A stretch of 64,000 nt of DNA from assembly GCF_964204645.1 (NCBI RefSeq), contig NW_027437439.1, positions 75,001-139,000 of the forward strand, in the 5' to 3' direction. The stretch's first letter is position 1, and each line of letters starts with the position of its first letter. The notes beneath the pieces were generated by a model. That model worked only from the letters and a program-made list of their open reading frames with translations, ran no database searches and was not told the origin of the DNA. Below are positions 1-28,987 of this stretch, one piece after another. The stretch is from Tubulanus polymorphus (taxonomy: Eukaryota > Animalia > Nemertea). The position numbers were made by a program, and so were the translations under genes.

Positions 1-992
1 AATTAGATTATTATAACCAATTATATTTCCCATCTTTAATACTAAATCATTAGAAATAATTAATAGATTAGGGCCTATACAATAATTAAGTCTTACATGA
101 GATTTATCTAAATAATTTTGATATCTTATAATGTTTTCTGGAATCGATCTATTTTTATCATTATGAATTGAATCTTCAAATAATACTTTGAATTGTTTTT
201 GCGCATCGAATGAAGTGTTATCATTTCCAATTATTGGGGATCTTGTTTCAACTTGAGCGCCTAAAATACATATCAAATAAATTCTAATAGATTGATTTAT
301 TCTTTGTATACCTGATTTTGTAAAACCTTCACCATTTTCTAAAATGAAATTAACCCAACCATTATTATTATCAATTTTATAATTATGATAAGCTGAAATT
401 CTATGCATATAATCAATTCTTTTTATTTCATACTCTTCACCAACACCTTGCAATTTACCATGCGCTCTAAAATCGGAATTAATATTTATATTAAATTCAT
501 TACATATTTTATAAAACTTGGATATATTAATATTATTATCCAATTCTTTAAAATATTTAGACCCGAGAAAGGACATTCTAATTCATTTAATATTATTCTG
601 ATTTGAAAATATGTGTGAAATCTAAATATTGTGTGAATTAATTTTAAATCAGAATACTTCAAATTTTTATCTAAGTTATTTAAATGATCATTCCAACTAA
701 TTCCGCATCCTGTTGTTGCACAATAAACAGCAAAATTTAATTGGTTCTGCCAATATTTCATATTAGATTTTACTTTATATATATGATATTCATCTCGAGT
801 AAAAGTAACTTCATATGTATTAAATATATTTTCCATTTTAGAAATAAAAAACTGTGATTCATAAACATAAATTTCTAAATTAGTTAATGAATTTAAAACT
901 ATATTTTTATATGTAATATTTTTCTTAAAATCTATTGCTGGAATATTATATTTAATTGATTTATTATATTGGAAAGCTTTTGGAAACCCCAT
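1..992 (-). pseudogene. Duplicate of the frameshifted 3733-5027 gene; runs off the left edge
   Basis: The 168-aa ORF differs by one residue (Y/N) and has the same frameshift. Confidence 0.65.
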
Positions 993-1008
993 TTATATAA
1001 TTAAAAAA

Positions 1009-1443
1009 TTAATAATTTATTAATTCTTTTAATAATTTATCTTGTTCTTCAACTGTTATATGACCATTTAAACTTATTATATAATCTAGTGTGTTCTTTA
1101 ATTTATTAATTTCTTTTATATTAGTTTTGATTTTTTCTTTATTACTTCTTATATTTAATTTTGAACTTATACCAGTTAAAACACTTGAACTTAATCCTAA
1201 TACACCAATTGATATAGCTAAAGGTGTTAATGGACTGAATATTGCTAAAAATGTTATTACAGAACTAATTGTAACCGAACCACTTATAATCAAATAATAT
1301 ATAATTTTACTTTTTAAATATTTTTTCTTTTTTATCTTTAAGTCACTTTCAAATTCTAATATTTGTTTTTCTAAATATGTTTTTAATTTAGTTTTATTTA
1401 TATCATGAGGAATAATATCAATACTATCAACTTTATCTTCCAT
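1009..1443 (-). CDS. Duplicate of the 144-aa viral 2-TM protein
   Basis: One amino-acid difference from 5043-5477. Confidence 0.7.
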   Translation of the reverse strand: MEDKVDSIDIIPHDINKTKLKTYLEKQILEFESDLKIKKKKYLKSKIIYYLIISGSVTISSVITFLAIFSPLTPLAISIGVLGLSSSVLTGISSKLNIRSNKEKIKTNIKEINKLKNTLDYIISLNGHITVEEQDKLLKELINY

Positions 1444-1462
1444 TTATTTAGCAAAAAAATTA

Positions 1463-1885
1463 CTAATTAGTAAACTTATAAGCAACAAATATAACAATAA
1501 CAGTTCCACCTAAAATCCAAATTATTTCATATTTCTGTTGTTCTTTACTTGGGGTATAATAATCTGATAATTTAGGTTTGTATAGATGTAATTTTTCTTT
1601 ATTGGTTACTGCGTTATATAAACTCATTGCATCATCAACTGATTGAAAATCTCTGTGTGAAATCTTCTGATTATGTAATTCTTTATTGATGTAATCCATA
1701 TAGTTTTGTCTCTTTTCTCTATATTCTTCTGCAGCTTTATTGTATTTCTCTAACGCTAAGTTATGTCTTCTTTGTTCTCCTAATGAACTATTTTTATCAA
1801 TATGTTTAAATAAATATCCACCACCAGTAAATGCTAAAGCGTTAACAATTGCTGATCCTATAATAGTTATAATTGCAGAAGCCAT
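1463..1885 (-). CDS. Duplicate of the 140-aa viral membrane protein
   Basis: Identical translation to 5497-5919. Confidence 0.7.
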   Translation of the reverse strand: MASAIITIIGSAIVNALAFTGGGYLFKHIDKNSSLGEQRRHNLALEKYNKAAEEYREKRQNYMDYINKELHNQKISHRDFQSVDDAMSLYNAVTNKEKLHLYKPKLSDYYTPSKEQQKYEIIWILGGTVIVIFVAYKFTN

Positions 1886-2076
1886 TTATTTAACAAAAAA
1901 ATTGTGTATTTATATGGGAGGAATATATTTTTGTTTTTCCAAATAATCAATAGTTAAATTAGATAAAGTAACTGCTAATGTTAACTTTAAAATATCATTT
2001 ATATCAAATCTATCAACATTAACACTTCCCATTTTGAATACTTTTTTTAATACCATTGAATAACCAACAGTTCCAA

Positions 2077-2214
2077 TCGAGGGATTCTAACGTATAAAGT
2101 TTCATCGGAATTAATATTTGAAGGGTTATGAGTAATTATATGATGTGATCTTTCTGCTTTAATAGCATTAGATATTCTATGATTCTTAGAAGGATTGATA
2201 TAACTCCCACTCAT
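2077..2214 (-). pseudogene. N-terminal 46 codons of a probable major capsid protein, cut by the duplication junction
   Basis: MSGSYINPSKNHRISNAIKAERSHHIITHNPSNINSDETLYVRIPR with a perfect T7-GT-TAAATAAATG start; not in the ORF track. The MCP call rests on recalled similarity to invertebrate PLV capsid N-termini. Confidence 0.5.
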
Positions 2215-2238
2215 TTATTTAACAAAAAAATTAATTAT

Positions 2239-3710
2239 TTATTTTTTGATATTTTTTGATATCATATTTACTAAACCAAAAATAATAGCACTTACAACTG
2301 TAATTAAAAATAAAATAATATGTTCAGCAGCAAAGTTAAGAATATTACCTGCAGATTTCAATATAAAACCAACAATTGAAGCAATAACTCCTGGCAATGC
2401 TGCAGCAGATTTTTTAGATATTTCCCATAAATATTTTGCTAATTTCTTTAAACCATCCTTAACTTTATCTTGTATAGAATTATTACTTGGAGGTTTATTA
2501 GGAGTGGGAGTAGGAGTAGATTTCAAAGCATTTTAAATAGCTAAACCTATTATTGTAAATAACATAGTAACAGCTGTTAGAATTGAAAGAATTGTTATTC
2601 CTTCTAACTTAAATAATAACTTTATTCTGTCTTTTAATGATATTTCAGAATTTGGTTTAATCAACAAATCTTTAAAAATAACTTTTAATCTATTTATATT
2701 ATAATCATATGATTTTAATAATAATTTAATTTCTTCTTTCTGTACTTCTAAATTATCTTTTAAATTACTAATTTCTTTTTCTAAATATGCATTTCTTTTT
2801 TTAAATTCAATTTCTTCAATAACTTTATTATCTCTATCTAATTTAGGTGTTCTATTTCTTTATTTTTATCAGCTCTATCTTTTTCTAAAGTTCTAATTTT
2901 AAAATCTCTTATACTTTTATCATACGCAATTTTATCAGATGCAAGTCTTATACTAATAATTTCTCTAATTGCTTTATCAGAAAACATATCTAAATCTTCT
3001 AATTCTTGATCTGTTGCATCAAGTAACCCATTCGGTAAAAGTTTTTCAATTGGAACTTTATTTGATTTAAGTTTACTAGTTTTGGAAGTTATATTCTGTT
3101 CAGAAGTTGTTTCTATTCGATCACTAAACTCTTCATTTGTTATTAAATTATTTTCGATTGTTTTAAATAATTTAATAACATTACATTTAAATGTTATAAA
3201 ATTTTCATCTCTTTCTTCTTGTGTAACATCAGTTATTTCATTACTATTACTTATTCTTTTAATTTTAGATAGTTCTACCCTCGACAAAGTTGATTCTGCT
3301 AATAATCTATTTCTATAAGTGATCTTAATATAATAATCCGAATTATCTTTCGCACGATAATAAAATTCACCATTTAAATATTTTAAATCTGGCGCTAAAA
3401 GGTCGGCGCCTTCATCATTGACTAAAATTCCAGATCTTTTTAAAATTGGTTTAATTTCATGAATAATTTCATTATATTCGTATTCTTTTCCTGTTAATTC
3501 TGATACTTCATTTTCAGTACTTATCTCTGAACGTGCATTTTTAACAAAATCATTAGTATCAGGTCTTGTTAAATTAGAATTATATGCTGATTCATCATCA
3601 TTATCAATATTAGTTTTATTAAAATCGGTTTGTGGTTCATCATCAATATATCCTTCATTATCATTGTCCATGTCATCCAATGGAATATCTTCTCCACCTT
3701 CTACATCCAT
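2239..3710 (-). pseudogene. Single viral gene (~490 aa): acidic N-terminus, coiled coil, C-terminal hydrophobic/amphipathic helices; frameshift near 2845 and in-frame TAA at 2533-2535
   Basis: The frame of the 2239-2526 ORF stays open upstream through ~2859 apart from one TAA (SLKDRIKLLFKLEGITILSILTAVTMLFTIIGLAI*NALKSTP). Confidence 0.75.
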
Positions 3711-3732
3711 TTACATAATAAAAAAATTAAAA

Positions 3733-5027
3733 TTAAAAATATAATATTCCTCCGATTACAATTCCTATACAAGTTATAGCTAATTTAGTATTTTCATGGG
3801 ATTTATTATCATCATTTAGTTTAATTATATCATGTTGAATTTTATCAGTTCTATTATTTTCTGATGTATTGTAATCTTTTATTTTAGAATCATTATTTAA
3901 TTTAATATTCTTAGTTTTAGTTTCTGTTGATTGAATGTGTTTTTTATTTTTTTCACCTTCCATTAATTTTGGAGCAGTAATTATCTTTTTATTTATATCA
4001 TTCAATCCAAATGAATTATTTATTGTTGCAGTTTTAATTAGATTATTATAACCAATTATATTTCCCATCTTTAATACTAAATCATTAGAAATAATTAATA
4101 GATTAGGGCCTATACAATAATTAAGTCTTACATGAGATTTATCTAAATAATTTTGATATCTTATAATGTTTTCTGGAATCGATCTATTTTTATCATTATG
4201 AATTGAATCTTCAAATAATACTTTGAATTGTTTTTGCGCATCGAATGAAGTGTTATCATTTCCAATTATTGGGGATCTTGTTTCAACTTGAGCGCCTAAA
4301 ATACATATCAAATAAATTCTAATAGATTGATTTATTCTTTGTATACCTGATTTTGTAAAACCTTCACCATTTTCTAAAATGAAATTAACCCAACCATTAT
4401 TATTATCAATTTTATAATTATGATAAGCTGAAATTCTATGCATATAATCAATTCTTTTTATTTCATACTCTTCACCAACACCTTGCAATTTACCATGCGC
4501 TCTAAAATCGGAATTAATATTTATATTAAATTCATTACATATTTTATAAAACTTGGATATATTAATATTATTATCCAATTCTTTAAAATATTTAGACCCG
4601 AGAAAGGACATTCTAATTCATTTAATATTATTCTGATTTGAAAATATGTGTGAAATCTAAATATTGTGTGAATTAATTTTAAATCAGAATACTTCAAATT
4701 TTTATCTAAGTTATTTAAATGATCATTCCAACTAATTCCGCATCCTGTTGTTGCACAATAAACAGCAAAATTTAATTGGTTCTGCCAATATTTCATATTA
4801 GATTTTACTTTATATATATGATATTCATCTCGAGTAAAAGTAACTTCATATGTATTAAATATATTTTCCATTTTAGAAATAAAAAACTGTGATTCATTAA
4901 CATAAATTTCTAAATTAGTTAATGAATTTAAAACTATATTTTTATATGTAATATTTTTCTTAAAATCTATTGCTGGAATATTATATTTAATTGATTTATT
5001 ATATTGGAAAGCTTTTGGAAACCCCAT
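3733..5027 (-). pseudogene. Single viral gene (~430 aa, C-terminal TM anchor) split by a 1-nt frameshift near 4603
   Basis: The 168-aa and 292-aa ORFs overlap, and only the first has the TAAATG start motif. The join would read ILNELECP|FLGSKYFKEL. The same split is present in the duplicate near 568. Confidence 0.65.
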
Positions 5028-5042
5028 TTATATAATCAAAAA

Positions 5043-5477
5043 TTAATAATTTATTAATTCTTTTAATAATTTATCTTGTTCTTCAACTGTTATATGACCA
5101 TTTAAACTTATTATATAATCTAGTGTGTTCTTTAATTTATTAATTTCTTTTATATTAGTTTTGATTTTTTCTTTATTACTTCTTATATTTAATTTTGAAT
5201 TTATACCAGTTAAAACACTTGAACTTAATCCTAATACACCAATTGATATAGCTAAAGGTGTTAATGGACTGAATATTGCTAAAAATGTTATTACAGAACT
5301 AATTGTAACCGAACCACTTATAATCAAATAATATATAATTTTACTTTTTAAATATTTTTTCTTTTTTATCTTTAAGTCACTTTCAAATTCTAATATTTGT
5401 TTTTCTAAATATGTTTTTAATTTAGTTTTATTTATATCATGAGGAATAATATCAATACTATCAACTTTATCTTCCAT
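5043..5477 (-). CDS. Viral 2-TM protein flanked by coiled coils (144 aa)
   Basis: Hydrophobic hairpin IIYYLIISGS...VLTGI; start motif; copy at 1009-1443 differs by one residue (N/S). Confidence 0.7.
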   Translation of the reverse strand: MEDKVDSIDIIPHDINKTKLKTYLEKQILEFESDLKIKKKKYLKSKIIYYLIISGSVTISSVITFLAIFSPLTPLAISIGVLGLSSSVLTGINSKLNIRSNKEKIKTNIKEINKLKNTLDYIISLNGHITVEEQDKLLKELINY

Positions 5478-5496
5478 TTATTTAGCAAAAAAATTA

Positions 5497-5919
5497 CTAA
5501 TTAGTAAACTTATAAGCAACAAATATAACAATAACAGTTCCACCTAAAATCCAAATTATTTCATATTTCTGTTGTTCTTTACTTGGGGTATAATAATCTG
5601 ATAATTTAGGTTTGTATAGATGTAATTTTTCTTTATTGGTTACTGCGTTATATAAACTCATTGCATCATCAACTGATTGAAAATCTCTGTGTGAAATCTT
5701 CTGATTATGTAATTCTTTATTGATGTAATCCATATAGTTTTGTCTCTTTTCTCTATATTCTTCTGCAGCTTTATTGTATTTCTCTAACGCTAAGTTATGT
5801 CTTCTTTGTTCTCCTAATGAACTATTTTTATCAATATGTTTAAATAAATATCCACCACCAGTAAATGCTAAAGCGTTAACAATTGCTGATCCTATAATAG
5901 TTATAATTGCAGAAGCCAT
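5497..5919 (-). CDS. Viral membrane protein (140 aa) with hydrophobic N- and C-termini and a central coiled coil
   Basis: Intact ORF with start motif; identical protein at 1463-1885. Confidence 0.7.
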   Translation of the reverse strand: MASAIITIIGSAIVNALAFTGGGYLFKHIDKNSSLGEQRRHNLALEKYNKAAEEYREKRQNYMDYINKELHNQKISHRDFQSVDDAMSLYNAVTNKEKLHLYKPKLSDYYTPSKEQQKYEIIWILGGTVIVIFVAYKFTN

Positions 5920-5943
5920 TTATTTAACAAAAAAATTGTGTAT

Positions 5944-6165
5944 TTATATGGGAGGAATATATTTTTGTTTTTCCAAATAATCAATAGTTAAATTAGATAA
6001 AGTAACTGCTAATGTTAACTTTAAAATATCATTTATATCAAATCTATCAACATTAACACTTCCCATTTTGAATACTTTTTTTAATACCATTGAATAACCA
6101 ACAGTTCCAACTGATAGTAATGCACCATTATATAATCCAGTTATTATCCACTTATTATCACTCAT
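5944..6165 (-). CDS. Small two-helix membrane protein (73 aa); its 3' part is duplicated at 1910-2076
   Basis: Start motif T7-GA-TAAATAAATG; two hydrophobic segments. Confidence 0.65.
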   Translation of the reverse strand: MSDNKWIITGLYNGALLSVGTVGYSMVLKKVFKMGSVNVDRFDINDILKLTLAVTLSNLTIDYLEKQKYIPPI

Positions 6166-6507
6166 TTATTTATCAAAAAAATTACTATCATCAAAATATT
6201 TAGTTAACTTATTTATGATTAATTCAACATTTATTTTATTACTAGTTTTATGATTATCATATATTTTGGATAATATGTTTTTAATATCATCAATAATTCC
6301 ATCTTCATTTAATTCATAATATTCTAAAGGTGATTTAATTAAATCAATTACTTTTTCTATATTATACTTTTCTTTATCAATCATTGATGCATTGTTAAAT
6401 GATTTACTTTTTATATCAGTAATTACATCATTTAGTTTAATTCTCATTTCTTTACCATGTTTAAAATCAAACCCAAAACATATACTCGGTCCAACAGTTA
6501 TATTCAT
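6166..6507 (-). CDS. Hypothetical viral protein (113 aa)
   Basis: Intact ORF with T7...TATATAAATG start motif. Confidence 0.6.
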   Translation of the reverse strand: MNITVGPSICFGFDFKHGKEMRIKLNDVITDIKSKSFNNASMIDKEKYNIEKVIDLIKSPLEYYELNEDGIIDDIKNILSKIYDNHKTSNKINVELIINKLTKYFDDSNFFDK

Positions 6508-6524
6508 TTATATAGTGAAAAAAA

Positions 6525-7283
6525 TTACTCTCTACATCTTATAACTAATTCATAAATTACAGGGAAATTATTTAAATCAATTAAGTATCCATTATGATTT
6601 CTAATTTCTAATCTAAAATTATTAAATTTAGGAATGCAAGGTTTGAAATCACATTCTGTTAAATTATAATTTATTTGCGTTCCAAATTCTTTAACATTCT
6701 TCAATGGTAAAATGTTTAGTAAACCAGAATTACAAGTTATATCTTTAGTTGCTTCAAATGTTTTTGTAGGATCGATTAAATTGCAATAAATATAAAAATG
6801 TGTAAAAGGCATTATATTTGGTGTAGCATCAGCATTGAGTATCCTTATATCTGGGGTTATTCCTAAAATTTTAGCTAAAGGTTTTTTAACTAGAAATTGA
6901 TGTTGATCTTCATTACCTAATTGTATTCTTATTTTATCAGAACTATCACTTTTAATCAGTCTTAATCCAAATCCAGCAGATGCACCCATTTTTAACCGAG
7001 CTCTTCTATTAATTTCTTGAGCTAATGTATCTAAATTATATAATCCTGGTTTAAGATAAAGATGAAACCATTTACTTTTATTTCTATCATGAATTAAAAA
7101 GACTCTATGTTCAATAGACTTATCCGATACATTGTAAAAAGAATTACATAAACTTATATTTACTAATTTTAAATCAACACAATTTTTGAATTCTCTGTCT
7201 AATTGTACTAATAAATTATGTGATTTATAATTTGTAAGTTTTCTAGAATCAACAAATATTCTGTATTCTTTTAATTCCGCCAT
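6525..7283 (-). CDS. Minor capsid (penton-like, single jelly-roll) protein
   Basis: Pattern IFVDSR...LxL..SFYNV...GLYN..LAQEIN...FYIYCNLI...NILPL...FRLEIRNHNGYLIDLNN..ELVI resembles Polinton/PLV pentons. Confidence 0.7.
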   Translation of the reverse strand: MAELKEYRIFVDSRKLTNYKSHNLLVQLDREFKNCVDLKLVNISLCNSFYNVSDKSIEHRVFLIHDRNKSKWFHLYLKPGLYNLDTLAQEINRRARLKMGASAGFGLRLIKSDSSDKIRIQLGNEDQHQFLVKKPLAKILGITPDIRILNADATPNIMPFTHFYIYCNLIDPTKTFEATKDITCNSGLLNILPLKNVKEFGTQINYNLTECDFKPCIPKFNNFRLEIRNHNGYLIDLNNFPVIYELVIRCRE

Positions 7284-7300
7284 TTATTTTACATATTTTC

Positions 7301-7642
7301 TCATTCGAAATCTATTTCATGGTGTCCTTTTTCATTCTTACCTTTATATACGAAATAGAAATCTCCAGAACATAATTCTTCTAGATCTTCACTTGATAAT
7401 CTATGAAATCTATCTGGTAAATAAGTTCTGAATTTATGTGTATTTCCTTTTAATCCTTCATATTCTAAGTGTATAACTAATTTATCTCCATATTTGTTAG
7501 TAACTGTAACAATATTTGTAATTAAATATTTCTTGTGAATTGTTAATTCTGTTAACTTTTTGAATTTATAATCTACAGATTTTACATTTGTGGTATCTTT
7601 AATTCTATCTAAGAATTCACTGTGTACTTGTTTACTCTCCAT
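7301..7642 (-). CDS. Small viral protein, possibly OB-fold ssDNA-binding (113 aa)
   Basis: Intact ORF next to polB with a TAAATG start; beta-rich pattern KKLTEL..KKYLI...TNKYG...TYLPDRF. The fold is an inference. Confidence 0.5.
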   Translation of the reverse strand: MESKQVHSEFLDRIKDTTNVKSVDYKFKKLTELTIHKKYLITNIVTVTNKYGDKLVIHLEYEGLKGNTHKFRTYLPDRFHRLSSEDLEELCSGDFYFVYKGKNEKGHHEIDFE

Positions 7643-10493
7643 TTATTATACAAATTTTTATTGAAATTTATTAACACGTTAGAATCCTTTTCATAATTTC
7701 ATTTTCTTTTGTTTCTTCTCTTTTGAATTTCATATATTCATCTAAATTACAACCATAGGCGACTGTGTGGATTCCATCATCTAAAATATATCTTTTATCA
7801 TCAAATGGGTTTAGACTTATCTTCTCTATCTCTTCAATATACATTTCATGATCTTCAGATCTTAAACATTTCATTTTATGTTTTCTAACTTCTTCATTAA
7901 ATATACAATTGATGTAATCTTTGAAATGAATATTCTTTTCTACTACACTTTTAGTAATTCCTTTTAACTTTTTAGCTTCATGTTCTTTAGTTTTATAACT
8001 ATACATTTTAGATCTAATAACAATGAACTCTATCATTTCTTCACCACCTAATTTATCCTTAAACTTCCCTGGAACTTTTTTATTATCATTGCTAAACAAT
8101 TCATGATTTTTTGGATAGTTACTAAAATCAAAATGATGTTTTAATGATTTTAAATCATCTTTTATATTATCACTTTTTATCTTTAATATATAACTGTCAG
8201 TATCTAGATATAATATTTCTATATTTTTTTCTCCAAAATGGGGTTGTAATATGTTATAGTAAAATTGATACATTAATAATTTTGAAATTTCTAGATGCAC
8301 CAACATAAATAGGTTTATTGAACTTCATAGAAGTTCTCCTCATTTTAACTGCTGCTAAATTTTCATCAAATATTCTGTTGCCTATGAATTTCGGATACGA
8401 TTGTAAATGTCTAATTCTTTTACCATTACTAACTAACTCAATATCACTTCTATTTCTTATGTTTTCACATGTTTTTCCATAAAATGCATTATTCATTAAC
8501 TTAAAAAAATCCTTCTCAAAATCAGTTTTAGCTTCAGTTCTCTGTGTAGTATTAAAATCTATATATTTTTCTAACCACTTAGATTGATTAAATGAAATAT
8601 ATCTATGTACTTTTTTTAATATCATTCCTTGATTCAAATAAAACTTCAACATTCTATAATGTACTACATAATTATATTTATCTTCTTGAGTTACCATTAA
8701 CTTTTCAGTATGAACATGATTATCGGGTTTAATTCTTTTTTGATAATTTGATAATTCTTCATGTTTAACAATTTTATGTTCGGGACAATATGCTAAATTT
8801 CTAGATTTGAATTCAATATTTTCGGGGTATTCTAAATCTACAACAAAGAAGTAACCAATATCTGAATCATCTGCAATATCTAGGATTCTTTTCTTCCAAT
8901 CAAATTTATCAATTTGTAAAACTTCAGTTATTTCAAACATCCCATAAGGTTGTGGTTCCATCATTGCCCAACCATAAAGGTTATTTGCATCTATGTATAA
9001 TAATTTATATCCAGGATTATCATTTACATTGAAATATCTATCACCCAATACACCTGAAACACCTCCTCTTATAGATTTTTCAAATAATAGTAATTGATCT
9101 ATATTTGTTAACAAATCCATTTTTATATCTGTAAATTTTAATCCACAATCCCATGTTAATCCTGGTGATGAATAACAATGACAAGGATCAATATTGAAAT
9201 ATTTTAGGTTTACATCTCTAAACCTTTCGAATATATCGGTTAATAATAATACATCTGATTTTAAATATAAATCTACTAATTGTCCATGATTTTTAATTTC
9301 AAAATGATTCCAAATATTCAATGTTCTATTATAAACTTCATCTTTAACATATTCATTTTTTAATTCATCATAGAATTGTTCTTTCAATAATTCAGTTATT
9401 TTAAAATCATTATGATTTTTATAGAAAGAATATGGAATTGCTCCTTTATATCTCATTAATTTAAAATCATCATAATTTGGGTAATATTCTTTTAATATTT
9501 TTAATTCATCATCAACTAATGATTTTGATAAGTTATCTAATGAACTATTTAAAAATCTATATGAATCTATAAATCTTAGACAACCAAATTGGAATATATA
9601 ATTCTCAGATGTTTTAGCTAACATTCTAAATTTATAAGTTGGTATTTTATCTTTTGATCTATTTGAATTTAATATTTCTATTTCATTATTGATTTCTTCT
9701 ATTTTATGACATAGTTGCTTAATGAATAAATGCGCGTCATATCCTGATAGATTATGAAATATAACTGGTACAAAATTAATTTTCTTAGCTTGTAAGTTAC
9801 AATTCTCATGTGCAGCGCCTCTAAACTTTCCGTTCAAATGATCATGGTCTCTTACTTTTTTATCTTTATAATTAAATATCTTTTCACAATAATAACATTT
9901 ATCTGTAAACTCAAATACTTCTTTATCTTCTTCTGTCATAATTATTTCTTTATTTTCATTTAACTTTTCATTAAATTTTATTTCATATTCAATTAATAAG
10001 TCACAAAAATGATTGATAACATTTTCATTTCTATAATGATAATATTCACTTTCAATTAGTTCTGGATAATCAGATTTTATATATAACCCGAAAGCAGCAG
10101 CTGATTGATGAATCTTTTTAATAGTATTTGTTTTTGGTGGTTCTTCTGAATAATCACTTTCATTAGAATTTAATTTCTTTCTTTCATAATATATATCTTT
10201 TCTATCTTTATCTGTTAATTCTTTATTTAATGATTCAAAATCTCCATATATTACAAATGGTACTTTATTTTTGTAATCATATTTTTTGAATTCTAATATT
10301 TTATCCTTTTCATTTGGTAAAACTAATTTACAATAATCATGATTATCACATAGTTGTTTATGATTTAATAATGTACTTTCATTACTAAATTTATGTAAAC
10401 ATTTTCTACATAGATATATTTTATTATCCGAATAACCATAGAAGCGATAACATTAAAAACCTCATTTTCTAATGAGTAACTACAGTTTATTAA

Positions 10494-10530
10494 CACGAAC
10501 GTTTTCGGGATCATATCCCCTCATCAGGTG
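10494..10530 (-). ncRNA. Second copy of the hammerhead in the inverted pLTR
   Basis: Exact reverse complement of 11672-11708. Confidence 0.8.
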
Positions 10531-10540
10531 AAATACAAGA

Positions 10541-11558
10541 GTTAGGCCCAACCTTAGCGAACTTTTGTCTTGCCCATTTTGAAAACTTGCTCCTCTCCAA
10601 AACTAATTACAAACCGACATTATACCTGAGATACGTGGACGATATTTTCGGCATATTTCGAAATGTATCCAGTTATAAACTATTTTTTGAAGAATTGAAT
10701 CGCCTCCATTCTAACCTTAAATTCACTTTTGAACTAGGTCCTAATCTATTACCTTTTCTCGATACCGAAATACAAATTCCGTTAGAAACCGGTAGTGACT
10801 TTATATCTCGAGTGTACAGGAAAGCTTCCAACACAGGCCTACTTTTGAACTTCAACGCCATGTGTCCGTATAAATGGAAAATAGGACTCATCAATACCAT
10901 GCTTTTTCGTGCCTACAATATTTGCAGTGATTGGACCATCTTTTCAGAAGAAATCAATTTCTTGAAAAATCTGTTTAAATCTAATGCGTTTCCTATTCAT
11001 GTCATCGATCAATGTATTAATAGATTTTTGAAATCAAAACAGAACTCAGAACCTCAACCGAAACCTGTTGAAGATGGAATTGATCTATTCATTTCATTAC
11101 CGTATATTGGTAACCCGTCAATCCTATTTGCCCGAAAATTAAAATATCTATTTAAAAGGAATTTTGAAATCAACTTGAAATGTGCATTCACTACGACCAA
11201 AATTAAGAATTTTTTCTCTTTGAAATGTGCTACCCCTAAATCGCTGAAGGCTAAAGTCATATATAAATTTAATTGTTTATGTGATATAAACACTTCCTAT
11301 ATTGGGAAAACTAAACGACATTTGGCCATCAGGATTAAGGAACACAGATCAAAGACTTCTGCGATTGGACAACATCTCGCAATTTGTCACACTTGTGATC
11401 AGGAATTCAGTAACAACAAATTCAAAATTCTAGACAAAGGTTCATCTGATCTCGACTGTAAAATTAGGGAGGCCCTGTTTATTAAAGCGCAACGACCCTC
11501 TTTAAATCAACAATTATTTCAAAACGGCTCATCCTTTATCCTAAATGTATTCAAATAA
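10541..11558 (+). CDS. Penelope RT C-terminal half plus GIY-YIG endonuclease (5'-truncated)
   Basis: LGPTLANF, YLRYVDD, LPFLD, VYRK, LPYIG, then VIYKFNC..SYIGKTKRHLAIRIKEH...REALFI...PSLN. Confidence 0.92.
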
Positions 11559-11671
11559 TTAGTTTGTAATTAAATACTTGGTTTGTAATTAGCTTAGAAT
11601 TTAGCACTTGTAATTTTGTAACTTATGTTGTATATAAACCTGTAGTTTAATCATTTGATCCACTTGTATTT

Positions 11672-11708
11672 CACCTGATGAGGGGATATGATCCCGAAAA
11701 CGTTCGTG
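11672..11708 (+). ncRNA. Minimal hammerhead ribozyme in the Penelope pLTR
   Basis: CAC-CTGATGA-g-GGGAT(atg)ATCCC-GAAA-ACGT-TC-GTG: conserved core, stem II, palindromic stem III and UUC cleavage triplet. Confidence 0.8.
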
Positions 11709-13157
11709 TTAATAAACTGTAGTTACTCATTAGAAAATGAGGTTTTTAATGTTATCGCTTCTATGGTTATTCGGATATTTGAACTCTCTTCCTAAGATAT
11801 ATTTTATTATGGTGATCACTTTCTGTTCTAAAAAATAAATCTATTTGTTTAATCCACATATAATGATTCTCATAATATAGTATATCTATAACATCATTTG
11901 AATCATAATCTTTTGATAGGTATAAAGGTTCTAATGTATAATGTTTAATATTATTTCCTTTTGTATTTGGTAATTTAATTAAATCAAATACATTTATCTT
12001 TAAATTATTATCTCTTTCTATTTTGGGGATGTTTTTAATTCTAACAGGATACTTATCTATCTTATAATTATTTTCAAATGGTTTATAATGAGTTAATCTA
12101 AAACTATGTGTAATATCTTCTGTTGGATGTAAACAACTTATTATAGCCCATAGAAAACATTTATCATCTTCATTTTGTATATTTATTACAGCATTAGTTT
12201 TAAATGGTAGTTTAATATAACTTGATGCTTCAATATCTGGTTCTTTATAAAATGATACATTATTTTCATCAATTGGTTTTGATTTAGTTAACTTATTATA
12301 TTTTGTGTTATAAACATGTAAAGTTATAAATATTATCTCATCAAATATTAAACCAGATCCTTCAAAATATTTCTCTTCTATTTTAGTTTTTATTTCATTA
12401 TAACATTTATTTAATTTATCATCTATATGTTGTTTAGATATAATATGTTGTGAATGAGAATTTATATTATATATTGGTTTATCTTCAGATTTTATAAACT
12501 TTACTTTAACTGATATACTTATTTTAGGATATTCAACATCTGTAATTATTTTTATTATTTCTTTCATATTTTCTAAATGTTTTTTATTTTCTTCTATTGT
12601 TTTACTTTTATGAAATTTAAACTCAATAGCTGCTGGACCAATATCACTTTTAAATGCTTCGGTTATCTCTATATCTTTTTTATTATCTAATGAATTAATA
12701 TAATTTCTTACATCTTCCATATATGGTCTTTTATTGTTTAATTTATTTTTTATTCTTTTAATTGTCTTCTGTTTCTTATCGTTATCATTATCAAAATAAT
12801 CTTCACCTAAAATATCATTATTCTTATTTCTAATATGACTTATAGATTTTAAATGTTCTTTATAATATCTTTTATCACTGAATGATTGATTACATGTATC
12901 ACATTTATATGTTTCTTTTTCATTCTTTAATTCTTCTAATTTAGTTTCTAATATATCATCCTTATATTCTAGTTTCAATTTATTCTCTAAATGTGTTCTA
13001 GTTTTATTGTGTCTTGCTTTTTGAGACTTGTCTATATCGATATTACATGTTGGGCAGTAGTATTTATTTGCTACCATTTTAATACTATATTTTTTATTAA
13101 AATTGATTTTAGAAGTTCAATGATTTAAATGTTATTCATATATGTGAATATTTTAAG

Positions 13158-13338
13158 AGTAATAGGGATAATAGGCTTTCGTATCAAAGGTCGAAGGGGT
13201 GAGTGAGTAAAAATGAAAATAATAATTTACAGTTGAATTAGGAGTGTGCGCGACTAATTCAACTGTAAATTATTATTTTCATTTTTTACGAGCTCGACCG
13301 TTCGACCTTTGGTATGAAAGCCTATTATCCCTATTACT
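13158..13338. repeat. ~180-bp imperfect palindrome (hairpin) at the virus/host junction
   Basis: Outer arms AGTAATAGGGATAATAGGCTTTC / GAAAGCCTATTATCCCTATTACT; inner arms AAAAATGAAAATAATAATTTACAGTTGAATTAG / CTAATTCAACTGTAAATTATTATTTTCATTTTT; short asymmetric centre. Confidence 0.95.
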
Positions 13339-13897
13339 TCCATTCTAACAACAATTTACATCGCCCGCTAGAAATCATGAATTCATAACCTGCTTGAGTT
13401 GGTAATTCTTTTACTGCATGTTTGTGACATCTATGTAAGATTTTCGAGCGTTCTTCAAAACGATATATGATATAAACCCGACTACCTCGCACTCCATCGA
13501 CGTTACTCCTAAACAACAACGAAATCAAACCATTACTGAGGATATCAAGTCGTTTTCTTCCGGTAGCGCAGAGTTTGTTGTCGGACTCACCGACGAGAAG
13601 GTAGTTTTCGTTACAGAATATCGACGGCTCGATGTCGTAATAAACGTGAACGAGAAAACTTCCCGGTAAAGAGCTGTTGACGAACCAACGACATTCAACA
13701 CCGCGAACTAACGACGGATAGTTCGGTGAAACGATGTAACCAGACGTAGAATCGACGGAGTATTGAGTGTTGTTAGATGATGAACTGACTGTAACAGACG
13801 CGGCTTCCTCGACAGAGTTTGCGCGATCAGCCCGCGTAAATATACAGTCTCCGCAAGCGATCAGTAAAACTACGAACAACGCTTTCATTCGCTGCAT
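13339..13897 (-). pseudogene. Truncated exon 1 (signal peptide plus CUB) of a GRL101-like GPCR copy
   Basis: Near-identical to exon 1 of the full copies; homology stops at KLLLEW, exactly at the hairpin. Confidence 0.9.
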
Positions 13898-16469
13898 ATT
13901 GAACACAATTCACGCATTAAAACAAACACATTTCTAACTATTTCCAAGTTTGCGCGATATTTCTCATAAGAGTCGTTGCAAAGTAATGACAAGTTGTCAG
14001 AATGTCAGAAGTTGACGAATTGATCGAGTCCAATTATTTTGTATAAAGATCTCTCATCAAACTGGCACCAGACTCGTATTTCTGTTACTTTCATCTGTTC
14101 TCGGTTTCCCTGTAATTACCGCGGTTTCTAAATTTAGACGTGTTTCAATATATCGTGTTTATAATCGTGTGCAATTATTTCTCTAAAAATATATTTACTG
14201 TCGCTCCCGAACTGCGTTCAGTTTGTGATAATATTCTATGACATTTTCTATCTTTACCTCAAAATATTCTGCGTCTCTGTAAAACACTTCGTCAATATCT
14301 GTTTTGACTAAATTCGCTCTACAGTCAATATAATAACTGAGTTGAAGCTAAGTGAAGCGCGTGGATATCTGATTGTGGTGGGGAAGAAGTCTTTCGGAAC
14401 AGATTGTTTTGAAGAAACAACAGCAACCAAGTAAGACGGGGATAACAGTTGTAGAATAGAAACAAAGAAATGTTTGGAATCTTTAGTTAGGAAACGGTTA
14501 CAATTACCCCGGCGAGAATCTGACTCGCGCACTCTGATTCGCTCCGTTTTAAATTTGTCCCGTTCCAGAGCTGGACCCGTTTAGAACGGTCTAACTGGTT
14601 CGTACTGTGAACGCGACGAAATTCAAACCAATAATAAATGAGGTGAATTGATAATTCCTAAACTTATGATCATCATTTAAAAACGTTTGATTTCACTCAA
14701 TCTATGTACATTACAGTCCGTTTGGCATTTTTACTTGGATTTTACGGATCAGTAAAATTCATCGTACTGAATTGTTTTTTATTCCTCCTTCCTCTTTCGG
14801 CACAATTTTTCAACAAAGAAAATTCTGTTATTCCTTCTCAGGTTTCAATCCAGTTACTTATAAAAGTTATGTTCATCTTAATTTTCAATCTCATGATTTG
14901 CGAAAACTAGTTCTTTTTTCATTTTTCCCATTGTTTGAATCAACTTAATCACAATTTCCAATTATTTCCGTTTTTTTGCGGTCCTTTGATGTTTTTTGTG
15001 TCGAATACTCTAATAATAAAAAAACTTCATTTTGATCCAATTTGTCTCCCTCTGTTTTGGAGCGCCTACATGTATGAAGGCAAAAAATGATGATCTTATA
15101 TGTTCGGTCACCGATAGTTGTGGAAATGTTTGTGTTTGTGTTTCTTAATAATGATTATTGAGAATAAGTTGGCGCCAGCGGCAGATTCAACTTTTAAGTA
15201 TCTGATATAATTTGCTCTTCTGGTACGAAATTAGCATCTTTTGATAATAGGTTTAACTCAGATATATTAAAGGACTTTAAAATATTGTATTATTTCAACA
15301 CTGGTGTATAATCGGTCCGTGAAAAAGAACATATTTCAATATTCCCCAATCAACTGTGTTTATGCATTATGGTGTTATATTTTTGGTAGGAGGTGCTTCG
15401 TCTCTCGTGGTAGAGACTGTTATATAATGATGATTTTCTTAATAGCCTGTTTAGTAATCGCTTCAAATGCTAGTTCATAATCCACTATAGGCCTATCAGT
15501 CGATTTACCAAGGTCAAAGCATCTGTTCTAATCACCTATGGTTTGGATAAAGTAGGCCAGATTGACTGTTTGTAGTCCTTCCTTTTATAAAACCGTGTTG
15601 ACCGTTGAACAGGATTCTAAATTCCCTTCATTTTCAATGATATGGTGCGGATGCGTCAGCGTACGCGCTATCGTGGTCAACACGGTACAACAACAAGAAT
15701 ACGCGCCTAATTCCAATATTCAAATGGCAAAATCTAAAACAACACATCAAACTCTCAACTTCGATCAATTCAACGAAATCTTGATTTAAAAAGTGGACCA
15801 TAAACAACTATCAATCATAAAACTAGTTTATTTGTTGATTGTAATCTGCTTGTAATTGTTACATATGACATCCATCCGCCTTTGATCTAATGTTATTTGT
15901 TATATGAATCTGTATGCGAGGGGAATGAATGATGTGTGATGTGTGTTTTAAGGTGGCCCAATGCTCCAAACAAGCATTCGTGCTTTCTATTGGGCTATCC
16001 TTCACTACATATTATAACATCTTGTCGACTCTTTATTCATATTTATATCTGTTATAATTTCTCTTGAAAATAAACTAGTATATATATAATACGAACAAGG
16101 CTGTGCAGAAAATCCGTTATCGCTGCCTTGCAGCTATATTTACTATCGCTATTAACTTGTTAATAATATCGTTTCGGCAATGTAGACAAATAAAATACTT
16201 ATTCCATTCTATTCTGCAATAGCTACGGTACGCCAACGAGGAAGAGATGACCTCCAGTGCGCCAGTAGAAGCTGTATAACGTCATCAATATATCGCGACT
16301 GGACTGGTTACTGGTCAATTCAATAATCGATTTTTTTTAATCCAAAATTACTTTATTGATCCTAAATACTAGCTAACTTAATATCATGTTTTTCATTGTC
16401 GACAATATAACGCAATATATGTGTTATTTCTAAATGCGTCTAAACTTTCAAGTTAGTTTTCTTGTTTAC

Positions 16470-17391
16470 CTGTGTTGTTGAGATCCGCTGAAATGTGTTC
16501 CTGATATTCGTAAAACCTGACATGCGGCATCAACATGAACAGCATGAAAATACACAATCTAAAAGCGCTTCCCAGACAGTGCACGTATTTACTCCTAGCC
16601 CAAATCAGCTTCGACCAGGCCTCGATCGACGGGTTCTTCAAACAGGCGCTGGCGTGCATCTTCTCCAGCACCGAATCGGCGTCGTTCAAGACGAAAAACC
16701 AGTGCGGCGATTTATCGTAACGATCGCCGTCCGCATCGTAAACCCCGAGATCGTACGAGTATACGACCTTCATGCCGTGATCGGCGGTCATCGTGCGGTA
16801 GACGCCCTCCGTGTTCAAAATAACCGAAAACAAACCGAACGTCCCCACGCGGGCGGCGAACTCTAACGGTCGAAGTTCTAGTTTATTCTCGTCCGTCAGT
16901 AGAACTGCCATATTCGGCGATATTTGGCGGTATACGAGGCGGTAGATTTCGACGAGTTTTGACTCGAGACGCGGGCACGCGGCCGCCGCCGAGACCAGCG
17001 CGTGAACGACGTTGTTACCGTTAACGTCCTTGACCAGCACGTCTGCTCCCTCGGCGATGAGATACCAGACGACATCCGAGCTGCAGAAAATACAAGCCAG
17101 AAACAGCGGGTTCGAAACCACCGACTTGTCGGCTATCTCGTCCGGGTAGCGCCGCTCGGGAACGACGACGCTAGAATCGTCGGTTAGATTTACGGTTAGA
17201 TCTGAATCGATCAAATCCGATCCTCGCTCGAGTTTGAAGAATTCGTCGCGCGTTTTCTTGACGACGCCGAGGTCGTTACGTTTGATGGCGTCCCGGAATT
17301 CGCGGGTTACACGCCTTTTATCGCTTTCCATAATTCGCGGATAAATTCTCCTGAAAAGTTCGCTCCAGTCAACTTGATCGCGAAGTGGCAA
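16470..17391 (-). pseudogene. TRPV-like ankyrin-repeat exon (ankyrins to the first TM), probably an orphan or pseudogenised fragment
   Basis: NPLFLACI...LIAEGADVLVKDVNGNNVVHALV...ENKLELRPLEFAARVG...YSYDL; donor-like AG|GTAAAC near 16469; upstream frame broken by stops. Confidence 0.6.
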
Positions 17392-18209
17392 TCAGCTTGG
17401 AATGATTTCGCTTCAAAATCACGATTAGTTTCCGATGATTTGGCAAGAATGTCACAATCAGTTTTCAATGTGTCAATTTCTAAAGAATTTCAAATTCAAT
17501 TTTCCAACGATTTACTAGAACTTACAATCAGATTTCATTTTTCACAATCATTGTCCAACGATAATATCTGTAATGTCACAATCAGTTTTAGCACGTCACT
17601 GTTAAGTTTCTTCCGATTGTTTCGCAATAAATTCAAAATCAGTTGTCAGTTATTCCCTCCGAGATTCCGATCAGTTTTCAATATATGAATCACTCGTCAT
17701 TATCCAGTTTCCAATGTAGTCGCCATAGAAAGTTTAGTTCCTTTCGTATCATATACGATCAAGATTAAGTTGTTTTTTTTAACATTCATAAATTCAACAT
17801 AATCAAATTGTAACGGCAAATATGGAACTGGGTTCGACCGGCTCCCGAAGTTGACGAAATGCTAGCGATGATAAAGTACAACTGGTTGCCAGATCCCAGA
17901 ACTGTGTGACAAACATTCACTGATGAAAAACGCGATTAAAATGACTGTTCAAGTACGTCGCGCACTGGTACGTACATACGAGCTGACGTGTGGAGAGGTG
18001 TTGTATCGATACAGATTCGTTTCAAACGTATTTTATAACTCATCATCGCGGTTTTATTTGCATTTATTACGAGTAATTTATCCGCTGATATGATCGCCGG
18101 CTCGCTGGTGCGTTCGTATAATATGTGGTAAAATATTTATACATCGCTATGAAACGATGTATCTAACCGTGATGTTTATCACTGGCTGTGATATTTGTTA
18201 TTGGAGAGG

Positions 18210-18325
18210 GAAAGGGAGAGGGGGCAGAGGGAGAGGCAGAGGCAGTGGTAGAGGCAGAGGCAGGGGCAGAGGCAGGGGCAGGGGCAGGCACAGAGGCAGG
18301 GGCAGGCGCAGAAGCAGAGGCAGGG
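18210..18325 (+). repeat. (GGCAGR)n simple repeat
   Basis: Hexamer repeat that explains the GR- and AE-rich ORFs. Confidence 0.9.
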
Positions 18326-19556
18326 TCAAGGGCGGTTTGCTATCATCAAAACTATGAACAAATGAAAGTTAGTATTAATAAACTGTGAATCTGTTTCTGA
18401 GATTAAAACTGAAATATATTTTTGAACCAGAGGTCACCCCGGAAACAATGAACTGCACCAGACGTTAGATACATTCAATCAGCAGCCTTTCAATAGTGAT
18501 CGCTTGAAGCGATGTGGTTCCATGGATACAAAATGATACCCGCATTAAGCGTACGTAATACAATGGATACTCGGTACCGGCAACGCCCCAATATACTCGA
18601 ATATAGTCAACTTTCGAAATGAAATCTGATAAAACATGATTAATTTGTGAGAGAAATAAATAGAGAAATAGGGAAATCCACTATTCTGTTTAAATCACAT
18701 ATCGCGTGGTATATCCGTTGAGAGTCTGTCTCATCGGTAGCGATCATATTACACAAGTGCATATCAGTTTTTGATACTTTGATAATATGACTTCGAAATA
18801 AAACATTTGATTTTCAAGGATTTAATCATGCAAGGGAAGAGCAAGTAGATAAAAGTGATAGTGAATATATATAGTCTATTAAGCATTAAACTTGACTTCG
18901 TATTCTATAGAAAATTGATTGCATATATCGATTATTATATTCAATGCTTCTGATATTTTGCATGAGGTATATTGCACTCTATTTTACTTGGCAATTTCGT
19001 TAACCCGAATCGGTCACCATACGATTCGGTGGTGGCTGAAAAATACTTTCATCCGGTGGCACATTTGGTATAATAGTATAGTATTTATTTTTCATTAGGT
19101 CGTTACATTATTACATTATTGATATCGCATGATATACAGTGACAAAAATGTAACAAGAAAATGTGGGCTACACGAAGAGACCACAAAGATCTATCGGAGC
19201 CGTGCCGCCCTAAAAAAAAAATCAAACCAATCACTCTTACACACACGCTCACACTATCTCAATTTCACTGGTCAGTAAAGGGCTCACCGAGCCCCTTAAA
19301 TCCACATCCTGAAGTAAATACTATTGCATTTAACAAACAATCTACAATTAATCTAATAGCTACGAAAATAACACTATTTCATATGAATTGTTCAGATAAA
19401 GTAGTGATGAAAAAACTGAATGGACCACGGGCCCAAAGGTCGTCGTTAATATCTTTCCTTTGTTCTTTAGATTCATTACTAGAGTTTGGTGCGCGACCAT
19501 GAACATTAAAACGATTCGTTTCAAAGCTCATTTATTGCTACTGAAGTTTTCTTAAT

Positions 19557-25500: not shown

Positions 25501-25776
25501 CGACGGCTCGATGTCGTAGTAAACGTGAACGAGAAAACTTCCCGGTAAAGAGCTGTTTACGAACCAACGGCATTCAACACCGCGCACTAACGACGGATAG
25601 TTCGGTGAAACGATGTAACCAGACGTAGAATCGACGGAGTATTGAGTGCTGTTACAAGATGAACTGACTGTAACAGACGCGGCTTCCTCGGCAGAGTTTG
25701 CGCGATCAGTCCGCGTAAATATACAGTCTCCGCAAGCGATCAGTAAAACTACGAACAACGCTTTCATTCGCTGCAT
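19557..25776 (-). CDS. GRL101/LGR type C2-like GPCR, copy 1 (~1,944 aa); exons 25776-24550, 24241-22889, 22811-19557
   Basis: Both introns are GT-AG, phase 0 and frame-preserving. Signal peptide, CUB-like domains (GYIVSPNYP, GLVQSPNYP), two C-type lectin domains, ~6-7 LDLa repeats, LRRs, hinge YKFCC...CSDLM, 7TM with GVCLP, CWLP and NPLLY. Confidence 0.9.
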
Positions 25777-26319
25777 ATTGAACACAATTCACGCTTCAAA
25801 ACAAATACATCTCTAACTATCTCCAAGTTTGCGCGACATTTCTCATAAGAGTCGTTGCAAAGTAATGACGAGTTGTCAGAATGTCAGAAGTTGACGAATT
25901 GATCGAGTCCAATTGTTTTGTAAAAAGATCTCCCATCAAACTGGCGCCAGTGTCGTATTTCTGTTACTTTCACCTGCGCTCGGTTTCGCAGTAATTACCG
26001 CGGTTTCTAAATTTAGACGTGTTTCAATATATCGTGTTCTATAATCATGTGCAATTATTTCTCTAAAAATATTTACTGTCACTCCCGAACTGCGTTCAGT
26101 TTGTGATAATATTCGACGACATTTTCTATCTATACCTCAAAATATTCTGCGTCTCTGTAAAACACTTCGTCAATATCTGTTTCGACAATTCATACTCTAC
26201 AGTCAATATGATAACTGAGTTGAAGCTAAGTGACGCGCGTGGATATCTGATTCTGGCGGGTGAGGACTGGTTCGGTACTAACTTTTCGCAGAGCCAACGC
26301 CAACCAAGTAAGACTCGGA

Positions 26320-26465
26320 TGACAGCGGTAGAAAAGAAACTGTGCTTATAACGAGCCAACAAATGCAGCAAATACCGATAACGTATTTTGGAGTTATGAT
26401 TGGACAGCTAGAAAACGGGTTGACGAAATTTGAATATCTCTGACGTGAAAGAATTAAGTGAAAAA
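26320..26465 (-). pseudogene. Displaced TM3-TM4 fragment of the same receptor, upstream of exon 1
   Basis: ILSRQRYSNFVNPFSSCPIITPKYVIGICCICWLVISTV; related pieces at ~14430-14520, ~28340-28400, ~40865-40890 and twice at ~58860-59170. Confidence 0.8.
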
Positions 26466-26548
26466 TCAAAGCAGTCTCTATTCATCACTCTTGATGGCTA
26501 GAATTTATGAATACAAATAACAGTATTTCCTGCTGCTGCTGCCGCTAC

Positions 26549-26584
<36 letters not shown>

Positions 26585-26939
26585 ACACTACTACTGCTGC
26601 TGCTAAGATCGTTCTAAGATTATTCTTCGAATTCAGTGATAATTCGAGTGACAGACAATGGACATTTGATTAATTGAATTTTTTGTATATTTCCTATGTT
26701 GATATCATCTTAATTTATTTTAGGTGATAATCAATTGCAAATAGTTCTAAGATTTGTGCTTTATTCCTGTGACAATTCGAGTGACAATTCAATAATGGAA
26801 ATGTGATTGATTGTGTTGCAAATTTATATTTATTTTAATTCGATTTTGAAAGGATTTAAATTACTGCATAGAACTATCATTTTAACGAGGACTGTTAGAG
26901 AATATCTGATATTATATCTACTTCATATATTAGGTAGGA

Positions 26940-28330: not shown

Positions 28331-28450
28331 AAACGACTTTTAGAAAACGGGTTGGCGATATTTAGATATATACGATATTTAGAATTGAGAGATATGTTAA
28401 AGCAGCCTCTATTTATTACTCTTGATGATTTGAATAAATAAAAATAACTC

Positions 28451-28674
<224 letters not shown>

Positions 28675-28780
28675 ACGATATTTAGATATATACGCGATAG
28701 TTCTAAGAAATTCGAGTTTCAGACAATGGACATTTGATTAATTGAATTTATTGCATATTTACTATGATGATATCGTCTTA

Positions 28781-28987
28781 TAAAAATATGTATTATAAAT
28801 GGAGAGTAAACAAGCACACAGTGAGAACAACAAATCATTCCTAGATAGAATAAAAGATACTTCAAATGTCAAATCAGTAGATTATAAATTTAAGAAGTTA
28901 AAAGAATTAATAATCCATTATAAATATCTAATTACAAATATTGATACAGTTACTAACAAATATGGAGATAAATTAGTTATACACTAA
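28781..28987 (+). pseudogene. Isolated fragment of the viral 113-aa gene from a related variant
   Basis: MESKQAHSENNKSFLDRIKDTSNVKSVDYKFKKL versus MESKQVHSEFLDRIKDTTNVKSVDYKFKKL at 7642; retains TATAAATG. Confidence 0.9.

Follow-up and report, generated by a model that had tools for sequence, protein, structure and literature searches.

Start sites resembling poxvirus late promoters in a Polinton-like endogenous virus of an animal genome and in its relatives

The first 13,338 nucleotides (nt) of a 64,000-nt stretch of the Tubulanus polymorphus genome (assembly GCF_964204645.1, contig NW_027437439.1, positions 75,001 to 139,000; hereafter the window) are a defective Polinton-like endogenous virus, a germline copy in an animal genome, in which nearly every gene opens with the same cassette: a run of T, a spacer of 6 or 7 nt and a TAAATG whose last three letters are the start codon. 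The arrangement is that of the vaccinia late promoter, and it is conserved in distant relatives of the element. We interpret the cassette as a late promoter that would be read by a pox-type cytoplasmic RNA polymerase supplied in trans and, judging from sequence, give this reading a probability of about 0.6.

The element is assigned to the Polinton/Maverick lineage (Polintoviricetes) because a relative, locus L001, shares the gene order of the window copy and then continues with a full capsid gene, an rve-chromo integrase, an A32 ATPase and a deoxynucleoside kinase. The flank shows the host to be an animal, as it encodes an LDLa-LRR-7TM (seven-transmembrane) receptor, ankyrin and CUB proteins. 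The element carries genes for pPolB (protein-primed DNA polymerase B) and capsid proteins. An earlier, sequence-only reading of this DNA was right to see a Polinton-like endogenous virus in an animal. The GC content of the element is 20-25% outside a Penelope insert (about 30%), and that of the rest of the window 34-47%. The boundary at 13338 is sharp and lies inside a host CUB-gene repeat, the other three copies of which are empty. In raw genomic reads (X6; roughly 12% of the run was examined) most of the element is covered several hundred-fold, and 2186 loose ends at 13338 with an agreement of 0.34 indicate many insertion sites.

On the minus strand, AA-T7-N6/7-TAAATG is found at the starts at 6507, 6165, 5919, 5477, 3710, 2214, 1885 and 1443. 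The T-run is shorter at two further starts (T5 at 5027, T6 at 992); 7283 and 7642 have TAAATG with no T-run, and the pPolB start (13077) reads TAAAATG. Given that positions 1 to 2076 are a tandem copy of 4036 to 6110 (99.8% identity over 2076 nt), the sites at 1885, 1443 and 992 are copies of others and do not count separately, leaving six T7 sites and nine TAAATG starts. The motif sites listed by the sequence-only reading are thus all where it had placed them, apart from this discount, and the spacers between genes are corrected to 0-28 nt; at 6165 the TAA is the stop codon of the previous gene. Of the ten non-duplicated starts nine have TAAATG, as do 17 of the element's 229 other ATGs on the minus strand (Fisher p 5e-9), and TTTTT-N6-8-TAAATG is found at seven of the ten and none of the 229, a control set that includes internal ATGs of frame-broken fragments (4611, 8306, 9939). 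The ten starts were picked from open reading frames (ORFs), and each later matched a homolog in L001 or L047. The enrichment over shuffled sequence that had been proposed as a check is likewise present: TTTTTN{6,7}TAAATG matches the window 10 times, always at one of the listed gene starts, against 0.60 expected, a number reached by none of 100 shuffles of the whole window, which is GC-richer than the element. The better control for AT content is L001 (GC 20%), with 12 matches at eight distinct sites, seven of them gene starts, against 0.49 expected (0 of 200 shuffles).

The T-run appears to be part of the signal for the gene that follows it. Eight of the nine T7 runs on the coding strand of the element stand at gene starts, and the onset of the run lies 15-17 nt before the next ATG but anywhere from -16 to +8 nt from the previous stop. 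It tracks the next ATG and not the previous stop, and therefore belongs to the downstream gene. TTTTTNT is the early terminator of poxviruses, and the T7 had been read in that light; given its placement, the run more probably serves as the core of a promoter than as such a terminator. T is found at -10 in seven of nine window starts. Upstream of the three genes nearest the end (7283, 7642 and 13077) the sequence is A-rich rather than T-rich; by analogy, these loosely resemble vaccinia intermediate promoters and possibly form a second temporal class.

In vaccinia, the late promoter combines a T-containing core and a spacer of 5-7 nt with a TAAAT(G) that overlaps the start codon (PMC5294985), and a T ten bases upstream is conserved (PMC11980589). 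The cassette shares all of these, a closer likeness than the sequence-only reading had argued. The same reading had also called the helper polymerase "asfar-like", which misfits the motif because the late initiator of African swine fever virus (ASFV) is TATA (PMC7163114).

Relatives were gathered by means of a 168-aa query fragment, which led to nine proteins of ~440 aa, whose alignment (A1) in turn led to metagenome loci and one genome-bin locus. The best 80 of 96 confirmed metagenome loci (47 of 64 parts scanned) and the genome-bin locus make up a set of 81; the metagenome loci come without stated hosts and are partial contigs, none a complete element. Conserved genes were defined independently of the motif by all-against-all protein clusters, with 13 antisense-shadow clusters dropped and the longest ORF taken per family, and the gene start was the first ATG after a stop, so that some starts are misplaced. 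The 49 loci with three or more conserved genes entered the motif count and split sharply: 13 have TAAATG at 64 of 70 starts, six are intermediate and 30 have it at 0 of 165. The background of TAAATG in positive loci is 2-11%. Since the positives span 20-39% GC and seven negative loci have GC of 37% or less, composition does not explain the motif; GC content was rejected as its cause, and the suggestion that homologous elements be searched has yielded a motif conserved in distant relatives independently of GC. In a quick tree of 60 rows all 18 positive rows fall inside one 26-row clade, with 4 label changes against 15.7 when shuffled, a clustering that near-copies inflate. The TAAATG cassette is lineage-specific and marks one branch of the family. 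The closest motif-less relatives of the window element, L005 and L006, sit inside this clade, and the motif has therefore been lost or replaced at least once.

The finer structure of the cassette is conserved as well. T occupies -10 in 20 of 21 near-clade starts and in 25 of 58 TAAATG words that are not starts. In distant clades the T peak moves to -11 (90% T), and at least three T are found in -12..-9 in 48 of 62 starts, as compared with 27 of 106 controls. In L027, L029, L030 and L032, divergent genes 14-15 nt apart read CATTTA-N8/9-TAAATG across their starts, and in nine loci head-to-head starts overlap, each strand having its own TAAATG. Bidirectional promoters occur in poxviruses (PMC3185747), and the CATTTA-N8/9-TAAATG pairs resemble them. 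A deoxynucleoside kinase gene (L001:10340-10981), not found in the other 80 loci, has a full T7-N6-TAAATG start.

If the cassette is indeed a late promoter for a pox-type enzyme, the integrated element would be silent until a helper, a co-infecting large cytoplasmic DNA virus with a poxvirus-type RNA polymerase, infects the cell. Element DNA would reach the helper's factory, where the late machinery would initiate inside TAAAT, slip, and add a 5' poly(A) leader in place of a 5' untranslated region; the element would then copy itself with its own pPolB, package and re-integrate. T at -3 is a poor Kozak base, a purine being preferred there. A poly(A) leader made by slippage would explain both the T kept at this position and the lack of need for a leader sequence, and initiation inside TAAAT with slippage is what produces such a leader (PMC6211774). 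No RNA polymerase, capping enzyme or TATA-binding protein (TBP) was found among 16 proteins of L001, 24 further relative proteins and 17 window proteins, a sample of near-complete relatives and no complete element. Precedents exist: endogenous mavirus-like elements (EMALEs) of protists carry subtype-specific helper promoters (PMC8547959; 10.1101/2025.10.09.676808; 10.64898/2026.07.28.741278), and polinton-like viruses (PLVs) co-purify with entomopoxviruses, in occlusion bodies (PMC11296320).

Several observations weigh against a promoter for a poxvirus-type helper. A motif scan of viral contigs for the helper turned up 36 loci, and in none of them does the cassette precede the majority of starts. 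The motif is not exclusive to poxviruses, as TAAATG stands at 6 of 14 ORFs in L114 and 3 of 7 in L111, both from giant-virus bins, and in linear plasmids of yeast the plasmid's own polymerase initiates at TAAAN (PMC6211774). Many insertion sites require access to the germline nucleus, which is harder for a purely cytoplasmic life, and the high copy number in the germline is in keeping with ordinary nuclear transposition. Since the contigs of the relatives are partial, a factor encoded by the element might be located beyond them, and most ORFs have no family match. By inspection rather than alignment, no link between the element's proteins and the entomopoxvirus-associated PLVs was evident. Motif-less relatives are equally compact, with head-to-head starts 3-37 nt apart or overlapping, and short spacers alone therefore do not exclude host polymerases; the sequence-only argument of "no room for Pol II promoters" cannot tell the readings apart. 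In AT-rich negative loci TAAAA is found near 21 of 27 starts, so that TAAATG and TAAAA starts may form a continuum, and the TAAAA may be an initiator of a related kind or simply an A-rich context for translation. Finally, depletion of T5 runs inside ORFs is not specific to motif-bearing lineages, being seen in motif-less relatives too.

We consider it unlikely that the cassette is an element-specific nuclear promoter used by host RNA polymerase II or III, possibly together with a factor of the element that has escaped recognition, and that its poxvirus likeness is convergent. The loose ends at 13338 are most simply explained by nuclear transposition, motif-less relatives manage expression of equally compact genes, and adintoviruses have been proposed to be autonomous (PMC8502044). 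A sister element, L006, has a weak VLTF3-like gene (E 6e-4); neither the window nor any of the other 80 loci has a homolog of this gene. Counter to a host polymerase, a TATA-like box abutting the ATG would place the transcription start ~25-30 nt downstream, inside the ORF, and such tight spacing has been termed incompatible with a complex of TBP, TFIIB and Pol II (PMC7163114). The scanned proteins of the window and relatives include no TBP match, and conserved family 5 shows no TBP-like sign by inspection.

Alternatively, the polymerase may be a pox-like enzyme supplied in trans by something other than a poxvirus, for instance by a linear plasmid of the cytoplasm like pGKL2 of yeast or by another order of nucleocytoviruses, or the motif may be the relic of such a past partner. 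The TAAAN initiator of pGKL promoters, with its slippage (PMC6211774), the derivation of cytoplasmic linear plasmids from polintons (PMC11071308) and the TAAATG starts in some giant-virus bins all lend this some plausibility. Yet pGKL promoters have been likened to early poxvirus promoters and not to a T-run at -10 (PMC6211774), and the motif's almost perfect preservation across deep branches speaks for selection at present and against a relic; we regard this explanation as distinctly improbable. Least probable, and rejected as the main cause, is that the cassette acts after transcription or as a terminator, with TAA-ATG stop-start coupling on a polycistronic RNA and T7 ending the upstream transcript: the TAA at 6165 is indeed an upstream stop, T7 contains TTTTTNT, and T5 is depleted inside the ORFs of the window (12 against 20.9 expected), but of the nine TAAs just one actually ends a gene, the T-run keeps its distance to the ATG and not to the stop, the motif is kept at divergent starts without an upstream same-strand gene (including that of the L001 deoxynucleoside kinase), and A5 is depleted too (75 against 109). 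As a separate observation, the GC-rich motif-less loci L009, L016, L019, L040 and L052, among others, have 9 coding-strand T5 runs where 32 are expected and do not avoid A5, hinting that poly-T termination may operate across the family.

The features of the window copy are collected in Table 1. This copy is dead: the Penelope insertion splits pPolB, and the polymerase frame is also broken near 9.9 kb and 8.3 kb. The gene sequence on either flank of the insertion matches L047, and X6 includes reads without the insert. The identity of the penton gene is probable, with a model of low confidence (predicted local distance difference test, pLDDT, 37.5), Foldseek matches that include the mavirus minor capsid protein (E 4e-6) and a DUF5901 match at E 0.03.

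Table 1. Features of the element and its flank in the window
Feature	Positions	Strand	Remarks
Tandem duplicate of 4036-6110	1..2076	-	with copied motif sites 1885, 1443, 992
T7-N6-TAAATG and first 46 codons of double-jelly-roll major capsid gene, cut by duplication junction	2077..2230	-	76% to the N-terminus of the L001 capsid
T7-N6-TAAATG and ~485-aa coiled-coil gene, C-terminal hydrophobic segments	2240..3726	-	frame-broken near 2840
T5-N7-TAAATG and clade-conserved ~440-aa gene, C-terminal hydrophobic tail	3733..5042	-	frame-broken near 4600
T7-N6-TAAATG and 144-aa predicted membrane protein	5043..5493	-	weak SLATT-like match
T7-N6-TAAATG and 140-aa protein	5497..5935	-	two hydrophobic segments
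T7-N6-TAAATG and 73-aa conserved small protein	5944..6181	-	90% to L001; T7 within last codons of previous ORF
T7-N7-TAAATG and 113-aa ORF	6166..6524	-	
252-aa probable minor capsid (penton); TAAATG start without T-run	6525..7286	-	low-confidence model
113-aa ORF; TAAATG start, A-rich upstream, no T-run	7301..7645	-	34% to L001 homolog
pPolB gene (zinc fingers, endonuclease-VII-like insert, PolB2)	7671..13077	-	Pfam PF03175 E 3.5e-17, PF02945
Truncated Penelope-like retroelement (GIY-YIG) inside pPolB, 115-nt inverted repeats	10425..11777	+	reads skipping it
Element end, begins AGT; imperfect palindrome, 181 nt, one long hairpin	13158..13338	-	fold and loose read ends
Host flank: CUB-domain gene repeat cut by insertion	13339..14460	-	empty copies at 25212, 39770, 57753
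Isolated relic of the 7642 ORF start, TAAATG kept	28780..28985	+	85% over 206 nt

In a test for terminal inverted repeats and target-site duplications, the window offers one element end, a sharp AGT end whose flanks vary among reads. The terminal hairpin has a DNA fold of -66 kcal/mol (z -17.75), as stable as none of 200 shuffles, with a perfect inner stem, and may be the replication origin; length variants within it are seen in reads. Loose read ends occur at 13338 and 13123, and the terminal repeat probably extends to about 13123. A hairpin end common to relatives was not shown, as the palindrome of L040 adjoins TTAGGG repeats and that of L001 is a weak AT repeat (z -2.35). In 91 X6 reads the element end is fused directly to the 7642 gene (joint 7659/13100), which suggests a non-autonomous derivative without polymerase. 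Beyond the element, positions 13339 to 64000 are a host tandem gene array with units of ~12-18 kb in three to four copies, and many more in the reads; the units contain CUB, ankyrin and a 1037-aa single-ORF LDLa-LRR-7TM receptor.

Looking across the relatives, rve integrase lies outside the window and is found in L001 (E 1.5e-10, with chromo) and L016, and the A32-like packaging ATPase (PF04665, E 4.6e-11) is in L001 and not in the window. The L001 capsid has no Pfam match, only distant structural ones: its model (pLDDT 75) matches double-jelly-roll capsids, those of the chlorella virus PBCV-1, iridovirus and mavirus by Foldseek (E 4e-15 to 4e-11), with PBCV-1 and iridovirus ranking above Sputnik and mavirus, all at about 10% identity; the family is not assigned here to the virophages proper (Lavidaviridae/Maveriviricetes). 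A maturation cysteine protease had no Pfam match in 16 L001 and 13 L016 proteins, both from incomplete contigs. About five proteins of the family have hydrophobic segments (window 1009-5919; L001:2014-5785) and no protease was detected, which suggests from sequence that the particle of this Polinton family contains a membrane. The close sister L006 (GC 49%) carries a Bcl-2 gene (E 2e-18), and 8 of its 11 starts have TATA/TAGA within 20 nt, words that resemble the late initiator of ASFV and that accompany 28 and 22, respectively, of its 391 other ATGs; the accession prefix of its contig is common to the motif-positive L001 and L004. Searches of viral contigs with the penton, the 168-aa fragment, alignment A1 or a capsid alignment (A2) gave no relatives, and no longer homologs of a 292-aa fragment were found. 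The ESM Atlas had no usable match for protein P0002, and PHROGs and a PDB sequence search with A1 were uninformative.

One data set stands out in read depth. The X1 (sample S1) to X6 depth ratio has a median of 209 (131-454) over 24 element bins and 7.3 (2.4-17.5) over 27 host bins, where summed contig depth is not copy number; on the Penelope insert it is 6-14, and the host GC trend extrapolated to 23% gives about 19. The element is ~25-fold enriched over host repeats in X1, evenly along its length, and little or not at all in X2 and X3 (another sample). Such even enrichment would fit extra element DNA copies in S1, or library bias; the variants appear to be a mixture and not a clone, the records do not say what kind of run X1 is, and we do not count the enrichment as evidence. 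A presumed RNA run (X8) yielded one contig placed on 12001-28400, which covers neither host nor element and carries no information on expression.

The parasite-of-a-virus lifestyle has so far been demonstrated mainly in single-celled hosts. It is debated whether the Polintons of animals live as autonomous viruses, as transposons or as satellites that depend on a helper, and helper dependence in animals is backed by co-purification only. A conserved poxvirus-late-type cassette in an animal Polinton would be virophage promoter mimicry of a known sort in a new setting; we found no earlier report of the TAAATG motif or of this lineage's promoters in animal Polintons in a literature search that covered few subscription journals. 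With a vaccinia-type late promoter on nearly every gene, helper dependence becomes directly testable, the cassette predicts that a pox-like virus of this host group awaits discovery, and promoter words offer a possible means to pair endogenous elements with helpers. More tentatively, and with the odds against it, a widespread branch of animal Polintons may consist of germline virophages of pox-lineage viruses of non-insect invertebrates, with sister branches tuned to other helpers (the ASFV-like TATAGA in L006, TAAAA in others) and S1 having caught the family replicating.

The nearest parallel is Mavirus/EMALE04 of Cafeteria burkhardae, likewise an integrated small double-stranded DNA virus with pPolB, rve integrase and capsid; EMALEs also have a helper-type late promoter in one subtype and other motifs in other subtypes (PMC8547959). 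These differ in having a protist rather than an animal host, the TCTA of Cafeteria roenbergensis virus (CroV) in place of the vaccinia-type TAAATG, and another capsid lineage (PMC8547959); a helper and reactivation are putative in the present family. The PLVs of entomopoxviruses (AHEV_PLV1/2, CBEV_PLV1, Ca_PLV1) are, similarly, polinton-like viruses of animals proposed to parasitise poxviruses, although they were found physically in occlusion bodies, encode a protease and, in three cases, a phospholipase, and have a tyrosine recombinase or no integrase (PMC11296320). By contrast, the present family has an rve integrase and several membrane proteins, with no protease found in the scanned proteins. 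The paper on those PLVs contains none of the words "promoter", "motif" and "transcription" (PMC11296320), nor does the adintovirus paper contain "promoter" (PMC8502044). Adintoviruses and animal Mavericks-Polintons share with the present family pPolB, the rve-chromodomain integrase, an A32-like ATPase, the major capsid protein and residence in the animal germline, and have the minor capsid protein and terminal repeats that are probable in it (PMC8502044). They are presented as autonomous (PMC8502044). An adenain protease was not found in the scanned proteins of the present family. With the vaccinia late promoter the cassette has in common the T-rich core, the spacer, TAAATG over the start codon, T at -10 and the back-to-back arrangement (PMC11980589, PMC5294985), and it differs in standing before nearly all genes of a small element in which no polymerase gene is seen.

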